In this document: in pieces, positions 919 to 23,905 of the stretch
Position numbering within the stretch: the first letter of the stretch is position 1
Layout: every line of letters starts with the position of its first letter
Source: an uncultured Fimbriimonadales bacterium
Lineage (GTDB): Bacteria; Armatimonadota; Fimbriimonadia; Fimbriimonadales; GBS-DC
DNA length: 64,000 bases
Reading direction: 5' to 3'
NCBI GenBank assembly: GCA_937992175.1
Contig: CALKLF010000042.1
Location: 9,743 to 73,742 of the forward strand
Position numbers and translations under genes: made by a program
Notes under the pieces: generated by a model
What the model saw: only the letters and a program-made list of their open reading frames with translations
Databases searched by the model: none
What the model was told of the DNA's origin: nothing

Positions 919-1548
919 ATGCAGAGTTTTATCCAGTTCGAACATTGCGAGTTCCGCGTTCTTTCCGAAGCCGACGAGGCGTGGTGGAGTTTTCTTTCTG
1001 TCGCATGCGATGCAGATCTGGGCGTCGGCGGAGATTTGCTCGCGGTTCTCGATATCGGCGGGGGCAGCGCGGAGGTCGCGCTTGGACGCGACGAGGTGGA
1101 GCAGTGGCTCAGCTTCCCCATCGGCGCGGGACGCCTCCGCGAAACACTGCTGCCGTCCGACCCGCCCGCTGAACGCGCGATACAGAACGCCGTCCAGCTT
1201 CTGGACGCGACCTTTGAACCCCTGCGCACCCTGCCGTCGCCTGAACGCATCGTATCTATCGGGGGTACAGGCGTGAATCTGGCGATGCTCGCGTTGGGGC
1301 TGACCCAGTTTGACCCAGCCCAAGCGCACGGCGTCTGGATTCGCTTGGAGACGCTGCTCACTCTGCGGGAGCGATTGATGCGCCTGAGCGACGCCGAACG
1401 ACGCGCCCTGCCCGGAATCGAACCCGACCGCGCCCCGCTGCTTCACATCGGCGCACTTATCATGGAGCGCGCCCTGCTCGCCCTGCAACGCACCGAGATT
1501 CAGATCAGCATGCGGGGGTTGCGCTACGGGATCCTGTGGAGCCTGTGA
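919..1548 (+). CDS. Ppx/GppA-family phosphatase fragment (second actin-like subdomain only; N-terminal ~100 aa absent)
   Basis: LAVLDIGGGSAEVAL, IGGTGVNLAML and later helices match Ppx/GppA domain II. No phosphate-1 (DxGSNS) region is present, and only 90 bp separates it from the upstream gene. Confidence 0.5.
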   Translation: MQSFIQFEHCEFRVLSEADEAWWSFLSVACDADLGVGGDLLAVLDIGGGSAEVALGRDEVEQWLSFPIGAGRLRETLLPSDPPAERAIQNAVQLLDATFEPLRTLPSPERIVSIGGTGVNLAMLALGLTQFDPAQAHGVWIRLETLLTLRERLMRLSDAERRALPGIEPDRAPLLHIGALIMERALLALQRTEIQISMRGLRYGILWSL

Positions 1549-1603
1549 GGTGCGCGCAGGCGTCGGGTGAACCGAGCCTTTGTGATAAGGACTTACCGAA
1601 AAA

Positions 1604-1678
1604 GATGCCTCGCTCCGCTCGGAATGACAGCGAGTTTCGGGCGACTACGCCTTCTCATTCCGAGCGGAGTGAGGCATC
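1604..1678. repeat. Family-A palindromic element (GATKCCTCGCTCCGCTCGGAATGACA ... TCATTCCGAGCGGAGTGAGGCATC)
   Basis: Two ~26-nt arms are reverse complements around a ~23-nt spacer. The same element recurs at 6731, 28462, 29927 and 42628. Confidence 0.85.
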
Positions 1679-1770
1679 TCAGCGCCGCATTTTAGAGACG
1701 ATTTAACACTTGAGGGACTTAAGTCTTCAAAGGTTAAGTCGTCCCTTTTTGCCCTATCCCTGCGTCAAAG

Positions 1771-1868
1771 CCACCCCCACCCCAACCCTCCCCGCTTGCG
1801 GGGAGGGAGCGCACAAGCGCGGGCAGCCGCGACTCCTCCCCCGTTCACGGGGGAGGTTGGGAGGGGGG
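1771..1868. repeat. Family-C G/C-rich hairpin element (CCTCCCCG-cttg-CGGGGAGG ... CTCCCCCG-ttca-CGGGGGAG)
   Basis: The ends are inverted (CCCAACCCTCCCCG vs reverse complement of CGGGGAGGTTGGG). Same hairpin style as the 4658-4971 insertion in ribF. It lies in a 580-bp non-coding gap that also carries GAGGGACTTA / TAAGTCYTCAAAGG motifs. Confidence 0.6.
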
Positions 1869-2126
1869 AAAGAGAATAGAAGGCAAACAGGACGATTTCA
1901 CATTTGGGGGACTTACCGCCCAATTCCCCTAAATTCCCCCCAATTCGCCGACTAAAACGGCAGGAATCGTCTGAGAGGTAGCGTATATAGAGCGTGAAAA
2001 AAGGGGACGACAGGCAAAGGAGAGCAAAACCTGTCGCCCCCAAGAGAGGTGTGTAGTTGCTTGCTATCTGTATAGACGCAGAATCGCGCCGAAAAGTTCC
2101 CGACTTCGGGTACAATTCGGCGCGAA

Positions 2127-3110
2127 ATGCGTTCGAGAGACTCGTTTAAGCGCGCCGCCCAGCTCCTGTGTGAGGCGGAGTCGCTGCTGATTGTCCCCCA
2201 TTTACATCCCGACGGGGACGCGCTGGGCAGCGCGCTGGGGCTGTATCACGCCCTCAAACAGATGGGCAAACCCCTCGTGGAGGTGGTCAGTCACGACTCC
2301 GTGCCCGAAATCTATCGCTTTCTGCCCGACTGGCAAGCGATCCACCTGGAGCATCCTCCACAGACCACCTATGACCTGGCTGTGGTTGTGGATCAGAGTC
2401 AGCTTAATCGTGCAGGCAAACATGAGTCGCTGGTGCGCGCGGCGCGGCGGATTCTGCAGATTGACCACCACATGCCGCTGGAGCCGTTCGCCGATGTGCG
2501 GATTGTAGACACCGACGCGGCGGCGACGGCGGAGCTGGTCTACCGCCTGCTGCGGGCGATGCGCGTGCGCATCACCCCCGAAGTCGCGACCTGCCTGCTC
2601 ACGGGCATCGTGACCGACACCTTCTCGTTCAAGTTTCCCAACACGACTCCGCGCACGCTGCGCATCGCCGCTGCCCTGCAACAGGCAGGCGCGAACCTGA
2701 GCTTCATCAGCGAGCAGGTGTTCGAAACGCGCTCCTTCTCGGCAGTGAAGCTGCTTGGACTCGCGCTCTCCACGCTCCAGCGCACGCCTGATGGGAAGAT
2801 TGCTTGGATTACCATCCCGCGCCGCTCTTTTGAGGAGTCTCATGCTCACGAAGAGGAGACAGAGGGCATCGTGAACTTCGTGCGGTCGGTGCGCGGCGTT
2901 GAGCTGGCGATGATGTTGCGCGAATCGCCCAACGGCAAGGTGCGGGTCAGCCTGCGCAGTCGGGGCAAGGTGAATGTGGCGCATCTGGCGCAGCAGTTCG
3001 GCGGCGGCGGGCACGAAAACGCCGCTGGCTGCACGCTGGAGACCAGCATCGAGAAGGCGGAGAGGATTTTAGTGCGCGAGGCGCAGCGATGGATGGAGTC
3101 GTCATCGTAA
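2127..3110 (+). CDS. nrnA: DHH/DHHA1 phosphoesterase (NrnA-like oligoribonuclease / pAp phosphatase)
   Basis: 327 aa with HPDGDALGS, QIDHH, GIVTDT and a C-terminal FGGGGHENAAG (DHHA1) motif. Overlaps the truB start. Confidence 0.8.
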   Translation: MRSRDSFKRAAQLLCEAESLLIVPHLHPDGDALGSALGLYHALKQMGKPLVEVVSHDSVPEIYRFLPDWQAIHLEHPPQTTYDLAVVVDQSQLNRAGKHESLVRAARRILQIDHHMPLEPFADVRIVDTDAAATAELVYRLLRAMRVRITPEVATCLLTGIVTDTFSFKFPNTTPRTLRIAAALQQAGANLSFISEQVFETRSFSAVKLLGLALSTLQRTPDGKIAWITIPRRSFEESHAHEEETEGIVNFVRSVRGVELAMMLRESPNGKVRVSLRSRGKVNVAHLAQQFGGGGHENAAGCTLETSIEKAERILVREAQRWMESSS

Positions 3111-3970
3111 ATAAACCTGCGGGGATGACCTCGCACGATTTGATTGACCATCTGCGTCGCGTGGCGGGGCAGAGGGAGGTCGGGCACGCGGGCACGCTCG
3201 ACCCGCTGGCGACGGGCGTGCTGGTCTGCCTGCTGGGACGCGCCACGCGCCTCTCGCCCTACCTGCAGGAACTGCCCAAAGCCTATCGGGGCGTGATTCA
3301 GTTCGGCATCCGCACCAATACGCAGGACGCTGAGGGCGAGGTTTTCTACCAGAAACCCGCGCCGCACCTCACGGAGGAGCAGGTACGCGCCGCCGCCGAA
3401 CAGTTCAAGGGGCGTATCCTGCAAATTCCGCCGATGTTTTCTGCTGTGCGCCTTGAGGGGAAAAAACTGCACGAACTCGCGCGGAAAGGACAGGAGGTGC
3501 TGCGCGAGCCGCGCCCGGTGTATATCTATAGGCTGGAGATTCTCGGTTTTCAGGGGGGCGACTATCCGACTGCCGAGTTCGAAGTGGAATGCTCGAAGGG
3601 AACCTATGTGCGCACGCTGGCGTCGGACATCGGCGACGCGCTGGGGGTGGGGGCGCATTTGAAGCAGCTCACGCGCACCGCCGTCGGCAAGTTCCGCCAT
3701 GAGGACGCTTGCGCGCTGGAGGAGCTGACCGACGCCGACGCGCTGCAGCAACGGCTCATTTCACTGGCGGATGCGCTCTCGCACCTGCCGCAGTGGTCGC
3801 CCACGCCCGCCGTGCTGGAGCGGCTCAAGCACGGCAACTTTGTGCAGGCGGAACATCCGCTGTGGACGCCTGGGGGGCATGTGGTGGTGTTAGATTCGGA
3901 GGGCAAGGTGGCGTTGATGGCGCGTTGGCTGCCGCCGCTGTTGCGCCCTGTGCGGGTGATTCAGGGATGA
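3089..3970 (+). CDS. truB: tRNA pseudouridine(55) synthase
   Basis: N-terminus MDGVVIVNKPAGMTSHD...GHAGTLDPLATGVLVCLLGRATRL carries the TruB catalytic Asp motif. 293 aa. Confidence 0.92.
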   Translation: MDGVVIVNKPAGMTSHDLIDHLRRVAGQREVGHAGTLDPLATGVLVCLLGRATRLSPYLQELPKAYRGVIQFGIRTNTQDAEGEVFYQKPAPHLTEEQVRAAAEQFKGRILQIPPMFSAVRLEGKKLHELARKGQEVLREPRPVYIYRLEILGFQGGDYPTAEFEVECSKGTYVRTLASDIGDALGVGAHLKQLTRTAVGKFRHEDACALEELTDADALQQRLISLADALSHLPQWSPTPAVLERLKHGNFVQAEHPLWTPGGHVVVLDSEGKVALMARWLPPLLRPVRVIQG

Positions 3971-5220
3971 GCTGGGTGATTGGCGTAGAGGGCGTGCGCG
4001 GTGCGTTTCCCGACGGCTGCGCGGTGACGATGGGCGTGTTCGATGGCGTGCATCGGGGGCATGCCACGCTCATTGAGGCGACCACACGCTGGGCGCACGC
4101 CCATGGCGTCCCCGCCGTCGCGCTGACCTTCGACCCGCACCCCGCCGCCGTCCTCGCGCCGCGCCATCGCCCACCGATGCTCTGCCCGCTCGCCCACCGC
4201 GTGGAGCGACTGCTGCAGCAGGGCATCGACTGCGTGGTCGTGCAGCCCTTTACACAGGCGTTCGCGCAGCTCTCGCCCGAAGCGTTTATCGAGGAGGTGC
4301 TGAGGCGCGACCTGAACGCCTGTGCGGTGGTGGTCGGCGACGACTTTCGTTTCGGGCGCGGGCGCACAGGCAGCGTGGAGACCCTGCATCGCGCAGGAAC
4401 GCTTGAGGTCGTCACGGTCGACAGCGTCCTCGACGAATCGGGCGAGCGTATCTCTTCCACGCGCATTCGGGAACTGATTCTGGCGGGGCAGCTGGAGCAG
4501 GCGAACGCGCTGCTGGGCGAGCCGCTCTATTGGACAGGCGTCGTGACGCGCGGCGATGGGCGCGGACGCGGCTTCGGCTACCCGACAGCAAACCTCACAC
4601 CACCGGAGCCGCTGATTACGCCGCTGGAGGGGGTGTATGCGTGTGTGGCGTATGTGTGCCCTCACCCCCCTGCCTTCTTCTCACACGGCGGGGGGGACGA
4701 GAGAGGTACAACGCTTGAGTCCCACACCTCCTATCTTTCTGACCTCACCCCCCTGTCCCCCCTCTCCGTAAACGGAGAGGGGGGAGACGCCGCCCCAGGC
4801 GCAGGCGGCTCCCCCTCTCCGTCTACAGAGGGGGCGCTGGGGGGTGAGGTCGAAAAGGCGCAGGAAAACGAGGCTTTTGTCTCGGAGGTCGAGGCGGACT
4901 CGCGCACCCTTGTTAGGAAAGCAGACTCCCCTCTCCCACGGCGTGGGAGAGGGGGGCAAGGGGGTGAGGGCTACAAAGTCTACCCCGCCGCCGTCAGCGT
5001 CGGTAAGCCGCCGATGTTCGAAAACGCCCGCGGGCGCGTGGAGGCGTACTTGATCGACTTTCCCGATCACGATTTGTATGGGCGCGTCGTCGCGTTGCAG
5101 TTCCTGAAACGCCTGCGCCCGCAACAACGATTCGAAAGCGTCGATGCGCTGCTGGAGCAGATGGCGCGCGATGTCGAACAGACGCGCCAAATTGCGCAGG
5201 AGGTACAATCGGGGCGATGA
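3967..5220 (+). CDS. ribF: Bifunctional riboflavin kinase / FMN adenylyltransferase, carrying a ~105-aa in-frame repeat-derived insertion
   Basis: ATG 3967 overlaps the truB stop (ATGA). GVFDGVHRGHATLI, the FAD synthetase half and an RFK half (GVYA ... YPAAVSVGKPPMF ... EAYLIDF) are all present. The longer track ORF from 3709 is a truB-overlapping artefact. Confidence 0.88.
   Translation: MSWVIGVEGVRGAFPDGCAVTMGVFDGVHRGHATLIEATTRWAHAHGVPAVALTFDPHPAAVLAPRHRPPMLCPLAHRVERLLQQGIDCVVVQPFTQAFAQLSPEAFIEEVLRRDLNACAVVVGDDFRFGRGRTGSVETLHRAGTLEVVTVDSVLDESGERISSTRIRELILAGQLEQANALLGEPLYWTGVVTRGDGRGRGFGYPTANLTPPEPLITPLEGVYACVAYVCPHPPAFFSHGGGDERGTTLESHTSYLSDLTPLSPLSVNGEGGDAAPGAGGSPSPSTEGALGGEVEKAQENEAFVSEVEADSRTLVRKADSPLPRRGRGGQGGEGYKVYPAAVSVGKPPMFENARGRVEAYLIDFPDHDLYGRVVALQFLKRLRPQQRFESVDALLEQMARDVEQTRQIAQEVQSGR
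4658..4971. mobile_element. MITE-like family-C repeat inserted inside ribF without breaking the frame
   Basis: Terminal inverted repeats GCCCTCACCCCCCTGCC (4658-4674) and GGCAAGGGGGTGAGGGC (4955-4971). Internal perfect hairpins include CCCCCCTCTCCG-taaa-CGGAGAGGGGGG and CCCCTCTCCCAC-ggc-GTGGGAGAGGGG. Confidence 0.65.
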
Positions 5221-5936
5221 CCATCCGGGCAGAGAACCTGAAACGCGCCTATCGCAAGCGGCTCGTCGTGCGCGATGTGTCGCTGGAAGTCGGGCAGGGC
5301 GAGGTCGTCGGGCTGCTTGGTCCCAACGGCGCGGGCAAGACCACTACCTTCTATATGATTGTGGGGCTAATCCGCCCGCATGGGGGGCGCGTGTTTGTGG
5401 GCGAGCAGGAGATTACTCGCCTGCCGATGTACCAGCGCGCGCGGCTTGGACTGGGCTACCTCCCGCAGGAGGCGTCCGTCTTTCGGCAACTGACCGTCGA
5501 GCAGAATCTGTTGCTGGTGATGGAGATGCGCGGCGTCCCGCCGCAGACCCGACGGGAACGCGCCGAGCAGCTGATGGAGGAGTTTCATATCGCCCACCTG
5601 CGCCACAGCAAAGGCTACGCGCTGTCGGGTGGCGAGCGACGGCGCGTGGAGATCGCCCGCGCCCTCGCCCTGCAACCCGCCTTCCTGCTACTCGACGAGC
5701 CGTTCACAGGAATCGACCCCAAGACCATCGAGGAGCTTCAGGAGATTATTCTCGGCTTGCGCCAACGCAACATCGGCGTGCTGATTACCGACCACAATGT
5801 GAGCGCCACGCTGCGCATCACCGATCGGAGCTATATTCTGGCGGACGGCGTGATTGTGGCGCAGGGCGCGCCCGAAGAGGTCATTGCCAATCCGCTGGCA
5901 CGGAAGTATTACTTTGGGGAGAGTTTCGAACTATAG
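5217..5936 (+). CDS. lptB: LPS export ABC transporter ATP-binding protein
   Basis: 239 aa. GPNGAGKTTTFYMIVGL, YLPQEASVFRQLTV, LSGGERRRVEIARAL and LLLDEPF are typical of LptB. The start overlaps the ribF stop (ATGA). Confidence 0.9.
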   Translation: MTIRAENLKRAYRKRLVVRDVSLEVGQGEVVGLLGPNGAGKTTTFYMIVGLIRPHGGRVFVGEQEITRLPMYQRARLGLGYLPQEASVFRQLTVEQNLLLVMEMRGVPPQTRRERAEQLMEEFHIAHLRHSKGYALSGGERRRVEIARALALQPAFLLLDEPFTGIDPKTIEELQEIILGLRQRNIGVLITDHNVSATLRITDRSYILADGVIVAQGAPEEVIANPLARKYYFGESFEL

Positions 5937-6713
5937 CCCCATCACCCGCAACAGGTTCTCCAGATAACGCACGCTGAGGTCGGTCATGCGCACGCTGATT
6001 CCGAGCAGTCCCGGCAGGCTCGCGCCGAGCGCGACCAGCCCGACGGCAATCTTGGCGGGCATACCAATCAGCCACACAGGGATCTGCGGCACGGCGCGTG
6101 AGACCGCCGCCATCGCGCCGTCCACCACCAGCAGCACGCCCGCTGCCGGCGCGGCAATCTGCAGGCAGAGCATCATCACCTCACCGCCCAGCTGCGTCGC
6201 CAGAGGCAGACTCGCCTCCGACCACGCGCTGAGGCTCCCCAGCCCCGCCCCTGCCTCGAAACTCCGCGCCAACGCCAGCAACAGCCAGTGATGCCCATTC
6301 ACCAGTGCAAACAGCGTCATCGCCAGCATATAGTGAAACTGCGCCAGCACGGTCGTCGGAAAAGTGGAAACAGGGTTCAGCACCTGCATCAGGTTGAAGC
6401 CCATCATCGCATCCAGCGCCTCGCCCGCCATCACCGCCGTGCCGATAATCAGGCTCACTCCATAGCCCATCACCAACCCAATAATCGCCTCGCCTATAAG
6501 GCGCGCAATTAGCGGTATCCAGTCGGTGGGCGGCGTGCCTGTGTGGGGCTGGATCAGCGGCGCGAGCGCAAGCGCAATCACCGCCGACAGCCCCACCCGA
6601 ATCGGCGCAGGAACCAATCGGCTACCAAACACGGGCGCGACCAGCGCCAGCCCCGACGCCCGCACAAACGCCACAAGAAACGCCCAGAACCATTCCAGAT
6701 TAAGACTCATCAT
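5931..6713 (-). CDS. fliR: Type III (flagellar) export apparatus membrane protein FliR/SctT family
   Basis: 260 aa polytopic protein. FLVAFVRASGLALVAPVFGSRLVPAPIRVGL and later FliR-like helices are present. Confidence 0.8.
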   Translation of the reverse strand: MMSLNLEWFWAFLVAFVRASGLALVAPVFGSRLVPAPIRVGLSAVIALALAPLIQPHTGTPPTDWIPLIARLIGEAIIGLVMGYGVSLIIGTAVMAGEALDAMMGFNLMQVLNPVSTFPTTVLAQFHYMLAMTLFALVNGHHWLLLALARSFEAGAGLGSLSAWSEASLPLATQLGGEVMMLCLQIAAPAAGVLLVVDGAMAAVSRAVPQIPVWLIGMPAKIAVGLVALGASLPGLLGISVRMTDLSVRYLENLLRVMGL

Positions 6714-6730
6714 CGTTGACTAATTGTTGA

Positions 6731-6890
6731 GATTCCTCGCTGCGCTCGGAATGACACTGTTCAGAATGGCGAGTTTCCTCACTGCGCTCGGAATGACACT
6801 GTTCAGAATGGCGAGTTTCCTCACTGCGCTCGGAATGACAGGCTTATTCGTATGCAGCCTCTGTTGTCATTCCGAGCGCAGCGAGGAATC
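6731..6890. repeat. Family-A palindromic element with its left arm tandemly triplicated (42-bp unit)
   Basis: TTCCTCRCTGCGCTCGGAATGACA-CTGTTCAGAATGGCGAGT occurs three times (the third copy lacks the spacer), followed by one right arm TGTCATTCCGAGCGCAGCGAGGAATC. Sits between fliQ and fliR. Confidence 0.9.
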
Positions 6891-6906
6891 TCCCAGATGC
6901 CCCCGC

Positions 6907-7167
6907 TTACGGCGGCAAGTTCGAGAACACCTTACTGGTAAACTCCACAACCTGGGTCAGCATCCATCCACCTGCGAACAGCGCGACCAAACCGACGGCA
7001 ATCATCTTGGGAATGAACTGCAGCGTCATCTCCTGAATCTGCGTCACTGCCTGAAACACGCTCACAATCAGCCCCACAATCAGTGCGGTAATCAAGATAG
7101 GCATCGCCACCTGCAAGCCCACGAGCATCGCTTGACGCCCCAGCTCCAGCACCTCCGCTTGGCTCAT
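6907..7167 (-). CDS. fliQ: Type III (flagellar) export apparatus protein FliQ/SctS family
   Basis: 86 aa: MSQAEVLELGRQAMLVGLQVAMPILITALIVGLIVSVFQAVTQIQEMTLQFIPK is the classic FliQ sequence pattern. Confidence 0.85.
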   Translation of the reverse strand: MSQAEVLELGRQAMLVGLQVAMPILITALIVGLIVSVFQAVTQIQEMTLQFIPKMIAVGLVALFAGGWMLTQVVEFTSKVFSNLPP

Positions 7168-7261
7168 ACTGGTAATTTTGGCGTGGCGTGTGGCATTTTG
7201 CAGAGGGTGGGTTCCTCTTTACTGGCTACTGCCCGTAGTTGAGCTTGAGAAACTTATAAAA

Positions 7262-8743
7262 TCATGGCACATGTTGCCGCGTGCGAACTTTGCCCAAGAG
7301 CGCACGCAACCGACGCAAACTGAGCGGATTCAGCAACAGCGCCGCCGAGAGTGCGTAGAGCCCGTAGCTGCTCAAGGGGGCGAACAGCGCACATCCCATC
7401 GCGCCCGTCCATAAAACCGCCTCTCGGTACGTCGGGCGTTGCACATAGTGCGCCATCCCCCAGTGCTTGTACCAGTAGGTTGGCAGATGCGCCGCGAAAT
7501 CCGCGAGCAGGAATCCCACCAGGCGATATTCTGGGGGGAGCCATGGCAGCATCCCATAGCACAGCCCGATAAAAAGAACGGCATACGCCAGGTTCGCTCG
7601 CATCAGGAGCCAGTTGTAGCCCTTGACCATCAACGCGGCGCCTTGAATCGCGAACAGGGCGGACATTAACATCCGCGCGCCCGCCAAGGCAAAGACAACA
7701 AGAATAGTATGAATCTCCCACCGTGCGCCCAGCAGGCGCGGCAGTATCCACGGCGCAACGAGAGCGAAGACCGCGAGTGATGCGCCCAGCGCCAGCGTCT
7801 GGAGCTGCATCGCCTCCGACACCGCCCGCGCCAGCCGCGCAGCGTCATGCTGCACCCGCGCGAAAACAGGGATCGAAAGCCGTCCCGCTGCGTCCCGCGC
7901 AAAGCCCAGCAAGTTCAAAAATCGGTTCACAATCGCCAGGTAGCCCGCCGCCTCTTTACCTGTCAGCGGCAGCAGGATGAGCGAGGGGGCTAACTCGCGC
8001 AGGTTGTAAAGCCACCCCGACAACGCCTGCGCGAACCCATAGGCAAGCATCGGACGCAACGCCTCGCGCTTCCAGTACCATCGGGGCTTATAGCGCGTCA
8101 CGGCGAAGAACCCTATGGGCAACACCAGCTGACCCGTCCAGAACCCCGCAACCAGCGCCCAGACCCCATAACCCGCCCACGCCAGCGGAATCGCCACAGC
8201 GTAGTAAGCCAGTTGCGAGGCGGTCTCGATCCCCGCAACGGCAGCGTAAGCAAGCCTGCGCTCGAGCATCGCCATCGGGACATAACTGATCAGCGTCAGG
8301 GGTAGATTCGCGCAGAGCAGCGTTGCGACCGCCGTGAAGTTCTCCGTGCGCACCCAGACCGCCCCGACGCCCGCTATCGCCAGCGCCGCCGCCCCTGCCA
8401 TCCCCACGCCGACCAGCAAAAACCACCAGAACGCCTGATCAAAAAGGCTTCGCTCCGCCTCGCCCTCCGTGCGAATGAGGTAGACATGCACCCCCATCAG
8501 CCCCACAAAGAGTAGATAGTTGAACACGCCATACGCGGCATTAAAGACCCCATACGCGGCGGGTCCCACGATGCGCGTCAACAGCAACACGCCTGCCAGC
8601 CCCAGCGCGACGGAGACGCCGCGTCGCACGACAAGATAGAGACCGCCGCGCAACGCCTGCTGGCGTGTGGAGTCGCCCGTTTCCCGCTCTGGCACGGAGT
8701 AGATTATGGCATTAAGCGAGGTATAATCGCGCTCGATGACCAC
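7262..8743 (-). CDS. MOP-superfamily oligosaccharide/polysaccharide flippase (Wzx/PST-like)
   Basis: 493 aa with about 12-14 hydrophobic segments and a polysaccharide-biosynthesis-protein-like N-terminus. Contains a duplicated heptapeptide AAYGVFN-AAYGVFN. Start uncertain. Confidence 0.65.
   Translation of the reverse strand: MVIERDYTSLNAIIYSVPERETGDSTRQQALRGGLYLVVRRGVSVALGLAGVLLLTRIVGPAAYGVFNAAYGVFNYLLFVGLMGVHVYLIRTEGEAERSLFDQAFWWFLLVGVGMAGAAALAIAGVGAVWVRTENFTAVATLLCANLPLTLISYVPMAMLERRLAYAAVAGIETASQLAYYAVAIPLAWAGYGVWALVAGFWTGQLVLPIGFFAVTRYKPRWYWKREALRPMLAYGFAQALSGWLYNLRELAPSLILLPLTGKEAAGYLAIVNRFLNLLGFARDAAGRLSIPVFARVQHDAARLARAVSEAMQLQTLALGASLAVFALVAPWILPRLLGARWEIHTILVVFALAGARMLMSALFAIQGAALMVKGYNWLLMRANLAYAVLFIGLCYGMLPWLPPEYRLVGFLLADFAAHLPTYWYKHWGMAHYVQRPTYREAVLWTGAMGCALFAPLSSYGLYALSAALLLNPLSLRRLRALLGKVRTRQHVP
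8722..8727 (+). promoter_or_regulatory. -10 box TATAAT (GAGGTATAAT) 8 nt upstream of ATG 8736; implies a leaderless mRNA
   Basis: Perfect TATAAT preceded by GG. There is no Shine-Dalgarno between it and the start codon. Confidence 0.4.
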
Positions 8744-23583: not shown

Positions 23584-23905
23584 ATAAGTCCTTCAAAGTT
23601 TAAAGCGTTCCCGAAACGCGCGAAGCGCGCATGGTGCGACGGCATTCCTGCCGTCGCGTATGCAATATCCCCAGCTGGCGCGACGGCATTCCTGCCATCG
23701 CGTATGCAATATCCCCAGCTGGTGCGACGGCAGGAGTGCCGTCGCATGTTAGAATACACAGGTGGCGCGACGGCAAGAATGTCGTCGCACCACTTGGGTA
23801 TATTTCACAGGCGACGGTGTGTAGATCCCCCAAGCGACGGCAGGAATGCCGTCGCACCGTGCACGCCTTGCGCGTTGTGGCTGATCTAACCTTTGAGGGA
23901 CTTAT
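23584..23905. repeat. Composite MITE-like element: 19-bp terminal inverted repeats enclosing an array of six family-B hairpins
   Basis: ATAAGTCCTTCAAAGTTTA (23584-23602) vs reverse complement of TAACCTTTGAGGGACTTAT (23887-23905), 17/19 match. Inside, GCGACGGCA-nnnn-TGCCGTCGC hairpins recur every ~44 bp, and the first two units are near-identical tandem copies. Confidence 0.7.

Follow-up and report, generated by a model that had tools for sequence, protein, structure and literature searches.

Layered repetitive DNA probably tolerated in a surface loop of the bifunctional FAD synthetase RibF of a hot-spring Fimbriimonadales bacterium

The ribF gene on contig CALKLF010000042.1, from the metagenome-assembled genome of a hot-spring Fimbriimonadales bacterium (Armatimonadota), contains within its riboflavin-kinase half about 0.31 kb of hairpin-rich DNA that leaves the reading frame open. 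We studied it in a stretch of 64,000 nucleotides of this contig, hereafter the 64-kb window. The locus raises the questions of what this DNA is, how it entered the codons of an essential cofactor-biosynthesis enzyme, and whether that enzyme still works. Our results suggest that positions 4658-4971 are very probably selfish repetitive DNA resembling transposable elements of the miniature inverted-repeat type (MITEs), which would have entered ribF in layers and be tolerated in a surface loop. A preliminary description of the sequence had left the choice between a MITE-like element tolerated in such a loop and a ribF inactivated here, with a second copy elsewhere. The former is supported by homology to dispersed repeats, by an empty site of four residues in relatives and by the prediction of a disordered beta-hairpin loop. 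The latter is disfavored by a frame kept in six lineages and by a low ratio of nonsynonymous to synonymous substitution rates (dN/dS, 0.16-0.18) in the parts of the enzyme flanking the insert.

Architecture of the insert and the families of its layers

The ribF coding sequence is intact on both sides of the insert, where the flanking peptides quoted in the preliminary description are present, and the inserted segment is indeed bounded by inverted repeats. The outer repeat (4658-4703 / 4926-4971) covers 46 nt with 78% complementarity, and an inner repeat (4735-4765 / 4827-4857) is 84% complementary. The length of 314 bp originally given to the insert is correct for the span set by the inverted repeats (4658-4971), but in comparison with an empty-site ortholog the insert measures 312 nt, or 104 codons. 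Perfect GC-rich hairpins with perfect stems of 12-14 bp are located at 4756-4785 and 4928-4954, and a third, imperfect one at 4811-4834; the expected number of matches to this hairpin pattern in shuffled sequence is 0.00. As a single strand, the insert folds in prediction end to end as one long rod (-209 kcal/mol, z = -9.5 relative to dinucleotide shuffles). As first described, it is free of stops in the ribF frame, where it encodes about 105 residues rich in G, P, S and E; each of the other five frames contains one to four stops.

The segment had been regarded as one inserted element. A MITE-like layer is present, but the sequence indicates three nested elements: an outer palindromic B-type unit (termini GCCCTCACCCC / GGGGTGAGGGC), a decayed MITE inside it, and an A-type two-hairpin unit as the core. 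The gene and the parts of its insert are the following:

3967-5220, plus strand: ribF, host gene of the insert, encoding a bifunctional riboflavin kinase / FMN adenylyltransferase of 417 residues with Pfam FAD_syn and a split Flavokinase domain
4658-4674, plus strand: B-type unit left terminus GCCCTCACCCCCCTGCC, an inverted repeat with 4955-4971; this terminus type is shared by loci L015, L047, L073, L118, L120 and L121
4675-4696, plus strand: degenerate left hairpin of the B-type unit, better kept at the same place in ortholog L001 (CCCCCCGCTCCCACGCCGTGGGA..GCGGGGG)
4697-4916, plus strand: decayed copy (220 nt) of a MITE, named MITE-C, with arms at 4697-4724 and 4889-4916; it aligns over its length with the independent copies L118, L120, L113 and L132
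4741-4851, plus strand: A-type two-hairpin core inside the MITE, with termini ACCTCACCCC / GGGGTGAGGT, hairpins at 4756-4785 (perfect) and 4811-4834 (imperfect) and a 25-nt spacer
4917-4927: spacer between the MITE copy and the B-type hairpin
4928-4954, plus strand: perfect right hairpin CCCCTCTCCCACGGCGTGGGAGAGGGG of the B-type unit; in L001 a T-A pair is replaced by G-C on both arms and the stem is kept
4955-4971, plus strand: B-type right terminus GGCAAGGGGGTGAGGGC, directly followed by the ribF codons TAC AAA GTC TAC CCC; in L002 it abuts TACCCC

In the MITE copy of ribF the tips are eroded (ACGAGAGAGGTAC / CACCCTTGTTAG) and the left arm has a 12-nt deletion, and the arms still align. Each of the three layers exists in multiple copies in related genomes and metagenomes. 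The idea that the flanking repeats and hairpins might be confined to this site is thus contradicted by their presence in many other places.

One layer is, as far as its alignment indicates, a member of a true MITE family. MITE-C elements measure about 232 bp (17 non-redundant full-length copies of 227-300 bp, 15 of them between 231 and 233 bp) and have terminal inverted repeats of 23-28 nt (CTGATAAGGGTACAACGCCTGAG... paired with ...GTGTACCCTTATCAG). A target duplication of 11 bp, with at least 10 of the 11 flanking bases matching, was observed for 9/17 copies, against about 0.8 expected. Their translations are low-complexity repeat peptides, with no transposase open reading frame (ORF). The ribF insert aligns with the intergenic copy L120, found in the same sample as ortholog L001, with its counterpart L118, and with L113, located in a membrane-protein ORF. 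This composite alignment extends from GGTACAACGCYTGAG through the core to GTGTACCCTTATCAG and then to GGCAAGGGGGTGAGGGC (L118, L120, L113). A metagenome scan with the left arm and the core terminus retrieved 32 contigs, several of which lack the repeat architecture and apparently matched by chance. A single sample, Ga0105160, accounts for 19 of the 32 and also contains an insert-bearing ribF like that of L001 (locus L123). Besides the copy in ribF, no other MITE-C was found in the 64-kb window. A protein search with the 105-residue insert peptide yielded three short hypothetical ORFs only, one of which led to the intergenic composite copy L120, and likewise did not recover the insert-bearing RibFs P0001 and P0002. 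An Rfam scan of positions 1500-7500 gave sub-threshold microRNA-hairpin matches and matched no RNA family.

Many MITE-C copies are located inside other palindromic repeats, and their duplicated targets are then repeat sequence (e.g., CCTGCCCCCTC, GGGGGGCAAGG). Together, the 232 bp of the MITE and the 11 bp of the duplication add 243 nt, or 81 codons, so that insertion keeps the reading frame. Intergenic MITE-C copies often present one or two open frames per strand, in both orientations; frames reading through the terminal repeat's TGA and TAA are closed. In the same metagenomes, the MITE has often landed in a further palindromic family, GGGGGAACC(T)NAGGAGG, whose hairpins include TTCCCCCTACGCAGTAGGGGGAA (L135, L139, L143, L145, L148, L152). 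Locus L146, with ends 2.6 kb apart, was the single candidate for an autonomous element and was rejected, as it encloses a subtilase gene and not a transposase. Ends of the CTGA type together with 9-12-bp duplications are presumably typical of the IS4 family, which we take as a mere lead for the transposase.

The 24-nt hairpin of the A-type core (CCCCTCTCCGTWWACGGAGAGGGG) has exact matches in at least 112 contigs of species-representative genomes. Among the matches listed, the sources are Anaerolineae, Thermoflexus and Dehalococcoidia, several Fimbriimonadales and other Armatimonadota, Nostoc, Calothrix and Phormidium, and a few other phyla, and nearly all copies are framed by ACCTCACCCC and GGGGTGAGGT. 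In Fimbriimonadales the typical A-type unit has about 90-110 bp and two hairpins with reverse-complementary loops (GTAAAC / GTTTAC), which is exactly the architecture of positions 4741-4851; dozens of copies of this two-hairpin architecture occur across Fimbriimonadales, Chloroflexota and Cyanobacteria. No target duplication was detected around A-type units, the length distribution of their flanking direct repeats being equal to the null. Therefore, these units are not classical MITEs, and this classification was rejected for them.

The hairpins of the insert had also been likened to those of an intergenic element of the window:

1771-1868, no strand assigned: diverged relative of the A-type two-hairpin unit, intergenic, with hairpins at 1786-1807 and 1835-1856

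The comparison stands for the two-hairpin architecture, but the element is a diverged relative and not an identical copy. It lies within about 370 nt of repeat DNA, composed of several repeats, that is missing from the orthologous intergenic regions of L002 and L003; with so many extra nucleotides from several repeats, the boundaries are too imprecise for L002 and L003 to provide an empty site of the 1771-1868 element.

Empty sites in relatives and the loop of the host enzyme

Alignment with orthologs, which the preliminary description had proposed, defines the empty site. The loop between GVYAC.. and ..AAVSVG has four residues in outgroup Fimbriimonadales and Armatimonadota, 12-22 residues in one clade, 36 in P0003, 108 in the window protein and 111 in P0002, a protein 87% identical to that of the window over the full length. 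A homologous segment at the same place in unrelated taxa would suggest an ancestral domain, and such taxa are without the segment. In a neighbor-joining tree reconstructed with the loop left out, every expanded loop falls in one clade, and the window protein and P0002 are sister to P0003. At the DNA level, the inserts of six lineages measure 312, 321, 96, 33, 24 and 42 nt relative to the empty site of L006, all of them multiples of three.

The shorter inserts bear on the direction of change. What is left in the 96-nt insert of L002 is the A core, the final nine bases of the MITE's right repeat (CCTTTTCAG) and the B-type right terminus; this insert is therefore a deletion derivative of the composite rather than a precursor. 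The short loop of L005 still shows homology with the core unit's left half (an alignment of 51 nt, 0/300 shuffles scoring as well), that of L003 gives a marginal match to the insert (2/300 shuffles), and no relic of the insert is detectable by this shuffle test in that of L004. Taken together, these alignments argue that the short loops of the sister lineages include decayed relics of the same insertion, clearly so in two lineages, and marginally or undetectably in the others. Between population variants of the insert-bearing ribF (L001 3315-3700 and L123 2622-3040), the loop of the first core hairpin is flipped, GTAAAC vs GTTTAC, a signature of inversion or template switching at the hairpin.

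Regarding the host enzyme, the ATG of ribF at 3967 overlaps the truB stop, within an enclosing ORF at 3709-5220. The Pfam FAD_syn domain covers residues 15-166 (E = 6e-47), and the insert divides Flavokinase into two stretches, of which residues 333-409 give the better match. In an alignment of 26 homologs, the motif residues of the FMN adenylyltransferase (FMNAT) module are invariant (G23, F25, D26, G27, V28, H29, G31, H32, S163, S164 and R168), as are the PTAN motif of the riboflavin-kinase barrel (P206, T207, A208, N209) and the catalytic Glu E359. By these residues, the protein is classified as a type I bifunctional FAD synthetase, with both the FMNAT module and the riboflavin-kinase barrel recognized.

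The AlphaFold2 model of RibF has a predicted confidence (pLDDT) above 90 in both modules and below 50 for residues 236-332, a segment leaving the fold between strand 222-230 and strand 337-346. The model superposes on the FAD synthetases of Corynebacterium ammoniagenes, Streptococcus pneumoniae and Thermotoga maritima (2x0k and 1mrz among the structures), with TM values, normalized to the target, of 0.80-0.88 for the C. ammoniagenes and T. maritima enzymes. The FAD-synthetase fold is thus predicted to be intact, with a protruding loop that is disordered. The preliminary description had proposed a structural model to see whether the insert projects from a loop, and in this model it emerges from a beta-hairpin loop. 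The insert is located between the strand sequences GVYACVAYV and YPAAVSVG of the riboflavin-kinase module, and in sequence alignment this site falls on loop L3c of the C. ammoniagenes enzyme (residues 231-246). This loop is said to occur only in Corynebacterium and Mycobacterium and to be absent from most FAD synthetases (PMC5428420). It takes part in the oligomer contacts of the C. ammoniagenes dimer-of-trimers and is separate from the catalytic flaps L1c and L4c (PMC5428420). An initial assignment of the site to the catalytic Flap II was ruled out by this correspondence to L3c residues 231-246 (PMC5428420). The insertion site is a loop of naturally variable length among FAD synthetases. The C. 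ammoniagenes L3c occupies the same structural position between two beta strands and represents a natural lineage-specific expansion of the loop; however, it is ordered, has 16 residues and is part of the dimer-of-trimers, whereas the RibF loop described here has about 105 residues, is repeat-derived and is predicted to be disordered.

Other RibF homologs carry additions elsewhere. P0021 and P0028 have a C-terminal tail of about 40 residues (PPASQGEPS..GSPHLWEEPEGGG), and P0082 has, following GMKPTFAS, a repetitive insert of 33 residues that lies in another loop close to the Flap II region. It seems that RibF has been repeatedly permissive to additions.

From these comparisons, a layered history can be proposed. 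A small GC-rich palindromic B-type unit would first have inserted into the codons of riboflavin-kinase loop L3c. A MITE of about 232 bp, with the A-type two-hairpin unit already at its core, would later have landed inside that unit, as its family appears to favor palindromic units as insertion targets; this order is consistent with both the nesting and the target preference. As RibF requires its portion downstream of the loop, only those insertions and later indels that kept the frame open would have survived. The element would then be translated as a disordered G/P/S/E-rich loop of about 105 residues projecting from the beta-hairpin, at a place where FAD synthetases naturally differ in length, so that the enzyme most likely keeps both activities. 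The ribF copy in this genome would be old and decaying, and in the sister lineages in-frame deletions would have reduced it to relics of 12-36 residues. If this is correct, an essential cofactor-biosynthesis enzyme can bear about 105 residues of transposon-derived disordered sequence over long evolutionary time. The series from the full composite to the 36-residue derivative and the relics of 12-22 residues would give a dated example of lineage-specific enzyme loops that originate from mobile DNA and are later trimmed.

Selection on ribF and competing explanations

Between the window gene and that of L001, both insert-bearing, dN/dS is 0.156 in the FMNAT module and 0.18 in the riboflavin-kinase flanks; it reaches 0.52 in the insert overall, 0.87 in its core and 0.32 in its right arm. 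The enzyme parts have therefore been under purifying selection since the insertion, and the insert peptide is weakly constrained. In view of the single open frame being that of ribF, of insert lengths that are multiples of three, of the low dN/dS of the flanks and of the intact predicted fold, ribF looks functional.

Nevertheless, several points weigh against a tolerated MITE-like passenger in a working enzyme. In a set of about 150 loci, none contains an autonomous transposon with the same ends. The preliminary description had suggested searching for target duplications, and these are present at 9 of the 17 family copies, but none is recognizable at the ribF copy, where the tips of the terminal repeats are eroded; the identity of this copy as a MITE therefore rests on the family alignment, and the copy may be decayed or rearranged. 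The core hairpins are almost perfect in L001 and L002 despite a flanking synonymous divergence of about 0.3, which, instead of simple decay, may reflect gene conversion from other copies, selection on the structure of the DNA or RNA, or a renewed insertion at a hot spot. Finally, we infer both the translation of the insert and the retained activity of RibF, and the check for a second ribF or riboflavin kinase covers the 64-kb window only.

Among the alternative explanations, one that we consider unlikely is that the insert has been exapted. It would be a disordered loop with a function of its own, in oligomer contacts like those of the C. ammoniagenes L3c, in localization or in regulation, or else the rod formed in the mRNA would regulate ribF. 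Such a role could explain why the insert is kept in two lineages differing at 12% of their residues, with a lower dN/dS in its right arm, a core substitution rate below the flanking dS and one compensatory stem change between the window and L001. The strength of the RNA fold (z = -9.5) and the contribution of L3c to the C. ammoniagenes dimer-of-trimers (PMC5428420) point in the same direction. However, the dN/dS of the insert overall and above all of its core indicates little constraint, and pLDDT is below 50 throughout the insert. In addition, the sister lineages lost most of the insert by deletion while the gene was kept, and the presence of the same peptide in unrelated enzymes fits a passenger better than a function specific to ribF.

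We regard as improbable that ribF is a pseudogene, or that its N-terminal FMNAT half works alone with riboflavin kinase supplied by another gene, the open frame being an accident of GC-rich sequence. The insert does split the Flavokinase domain, and GC-rich repeats are poor in stops, as illustrated by the one or two open frames per strand of many intergenic MITE copies; the restriction of the second-copy check to the window also leaves room for this idea. In contrast, the flanks of the riboflavin-kinase module have a dN/dS of 0.18 between two insert-bearing orthologs, indels are multiples of three throughout the six lineages, the catalytic residues are invariant, and the only one of the six frames of the insert to be open is that of ribF. 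Moreover, no second ribF is present within the 64-kb window.

Removal of the insert after transcription or translation, as an intron, an intein or a translational bypass, appears very improbable. The end-to-end pairing of the insert (-209 kcal/mol) would bring the flanks side by side, and the rod could in this way join the two halves of ribF. Nevertheless, neither an open frame nor lengths in multiples of three would be needed if the segment were excised; no intron or ribozyme was matched in Rfam, the insert ends in ..GGEG|YKV without intein junction residues, and the sequence is low-complexity and disordered. An intein or intron was rejected on account of the conserved frame and the absent junction and Rfam signatures.

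Repeats classically cause misassembly in metagenome-assembled genomes, but an artefactual origin of the insert, by chimeric joining at a repeat, can practically be dismissed. The identical 417-residue protein is found on three public contigs (ENA and NCBI), two other datasets (L001, L123) contain an insert-bearing ortholog with 87% identity, and the gene order around the locus is conserved.

In-frame repeats in other genes and the remaining repeats of the window

The passenger character of the insert can also be considered from the other genes in which its layers reside. Among 116 sampled hairpin sites, about two dozen are located in ORFs that reach at least 100 codons on both sides, almost always in the frame giving ..LTPxxPLSV(N/Y)GEGG....SPSPFTERGxGGEV. 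All seven ORFs tested (7/7) are real genes, with Pfam domain matches on both sides of the insert: ValRS, LeuRS, MnmG, a Zn-dependent alcohol dehydrogenase, an MFS transporter, an AIR-synthase-like protein with three tandem units and a PMT-like glycosyltransferase with two copies. The Nostoc copies are located in IleRS, and an M16-type peptidase (L132) carries a complete MITE in frame, in the same frame as RibF. In total, RibF and at least ten other host proteins carry an in-frame palindromic repeat (loci of units or MITE: L057, L079, L021/L043, L022, L050, L100, L023, L088, L132).

These observations allow a broader proposal, which we put forward tentatively and hold to be possible rather than probable. 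The palindromic-unit family (ACCTCACCCC, hairpin, GGGGTGAGGT) in Chloroflexota, Armatimonadota and Cyanobacteria, together with the MITE built around such a unit, would be routinely carried in one frame inside essential enzymes, which may include aminoacyl-tRNA synthetases, MnmG, RibF and peptidases. This would be a general, undescribed phenomenon outside Rickettsia, similar to the Rickettsia palindromic elements (RPEs). The elements may even be shaped for compatibility with coding sequence, given the 81 codons added by MITE plus duplication and the open frames in both orientations. Should the proposal hold, the near-identity of the hairpin between phyla would mean either that it spread horizontally or that a host factor recognizing it is conserved.

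In-frame fusion of repeats with genes has been documented mostly for RPEs, and also for ERIC, BOX, Correia and some cyanobacterial MITEs (PMC10969869, PMC3184786). RPEs, described by Ogata et al. in 2000 and 2002, are, as summarized in PMC10969869 and PMC3184786, short palindromic repeats in frame inside unrelated, often essential protein genes. According to the same summaries, their translation adds surface segments that the fold can accommodate, and the element peptide recurs in many host proteins. In contrast, the ribF elements are GC-rich whereas RPEs are AT-rich, so that no sequence relationship is expected; the hosts here are Armatimonadota, Chloroflexota and Cyanobacteria instead of Rickettsia; and one of the nested layers is, judged by its alignment, a copy of a classical MITE, the family of which has terminal inverted repeats and an 11-bp target duplication. 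We therefore treat the ribF insert as an analogue of RPEs and not as a member of the families RPE-1 to RPE-10.

Similarly, MITE-C shares with bacterial MITEs such as Nezha of cyanobacteria, Correia, ERIC and BOX (PMC3184786, PMC10969869) a length of about 232 bp without transposase, terminal inverted repeats of 23-28 nt and, at the family level (9/17 copies), a target duplication of fixed length. It also shares their many dispersed copies, strong predicted stem-loop and occasional in-frame gene fusion. However, no described family matched its terminal repeat CTGATAAGGGTAC... combined with an 11-bp duplication, and MITE-C differs in its marked preference for landing inside other palindromic repeats and in a total of 243 nt that keeps the frame. 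The A- and B-type units recall the REP and REPIN sequences that RAYT (Y1) transposases mobilize (PMC3116915, PMC3733652), as the units are GC-rich hairpins of 22-30 nt, often in inverted doublets with a spacer and without target duplication. In REPs, the palindrome begins at its head with a conserved tetranucleotide, GTAG or CGTC (PMC3733652). The units described here have neither; instead, they have conserved termini (ACCTCACCCC / GGGGTGAGGT, more generally (A/C)CCTCACCCC / GGGGTGAGG(T/G)), and many of their copies are intragenic. A literature search for MITE or REP elements in Armatimonadota retrieved nothing relevant, and a full-text search for the hairpin strings returned only irrelevant G-quadruplex and primer papers. 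The broader pattern may be new: one hairpin is shared by three phyla, and aminoacyl-tRNA synthetases have repeatedly come to carry it in frame. Translated palindromic repeats in housekeeping genes, best known in Rickettsia, would extend to free-living thermophilic Armatimonadota and apparently to Chloroflexota and Cyanobacteria. For annotation, such inserts are a warning, as they split Pfam domains and inflate protein lengths in metagenome-assembled genomes.

Other repeats and conserved DNA are present in the window. Directly upstream of the DHH/DHHA1 (nrnA-like) gene, about 140 nt (1985-2126) are near-invariant in the window, L001, L002 and L003, while the neighboring coding DNA differs by 10-20%. 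This segment contains the hairpin GGGGACGACAGG..CCTGYCGCCCC and may be a conserved leader or a small RNA; it has no Rfam match. A second, unrelated repeat family is represented by a palindromic pair of the GATTCCTCGCTGCGCTCGGAATGACA family at 1620-1700, in the Ppx-nrnA intergenic region. At 6728-6895, between fliR-like and fliQ-like genes, three direct units of GATTCCTCGCTGCGCTCGGAATGACA are spaced about 49 nt apart and accompanied by an inverted copy. Finally, five short hairpins (GCGACGGCA-NNNN-TGCCGTCGC), spaced about 45-60 nt apart at 23636-23855, form a third repeat family or array, apparently non-coding.

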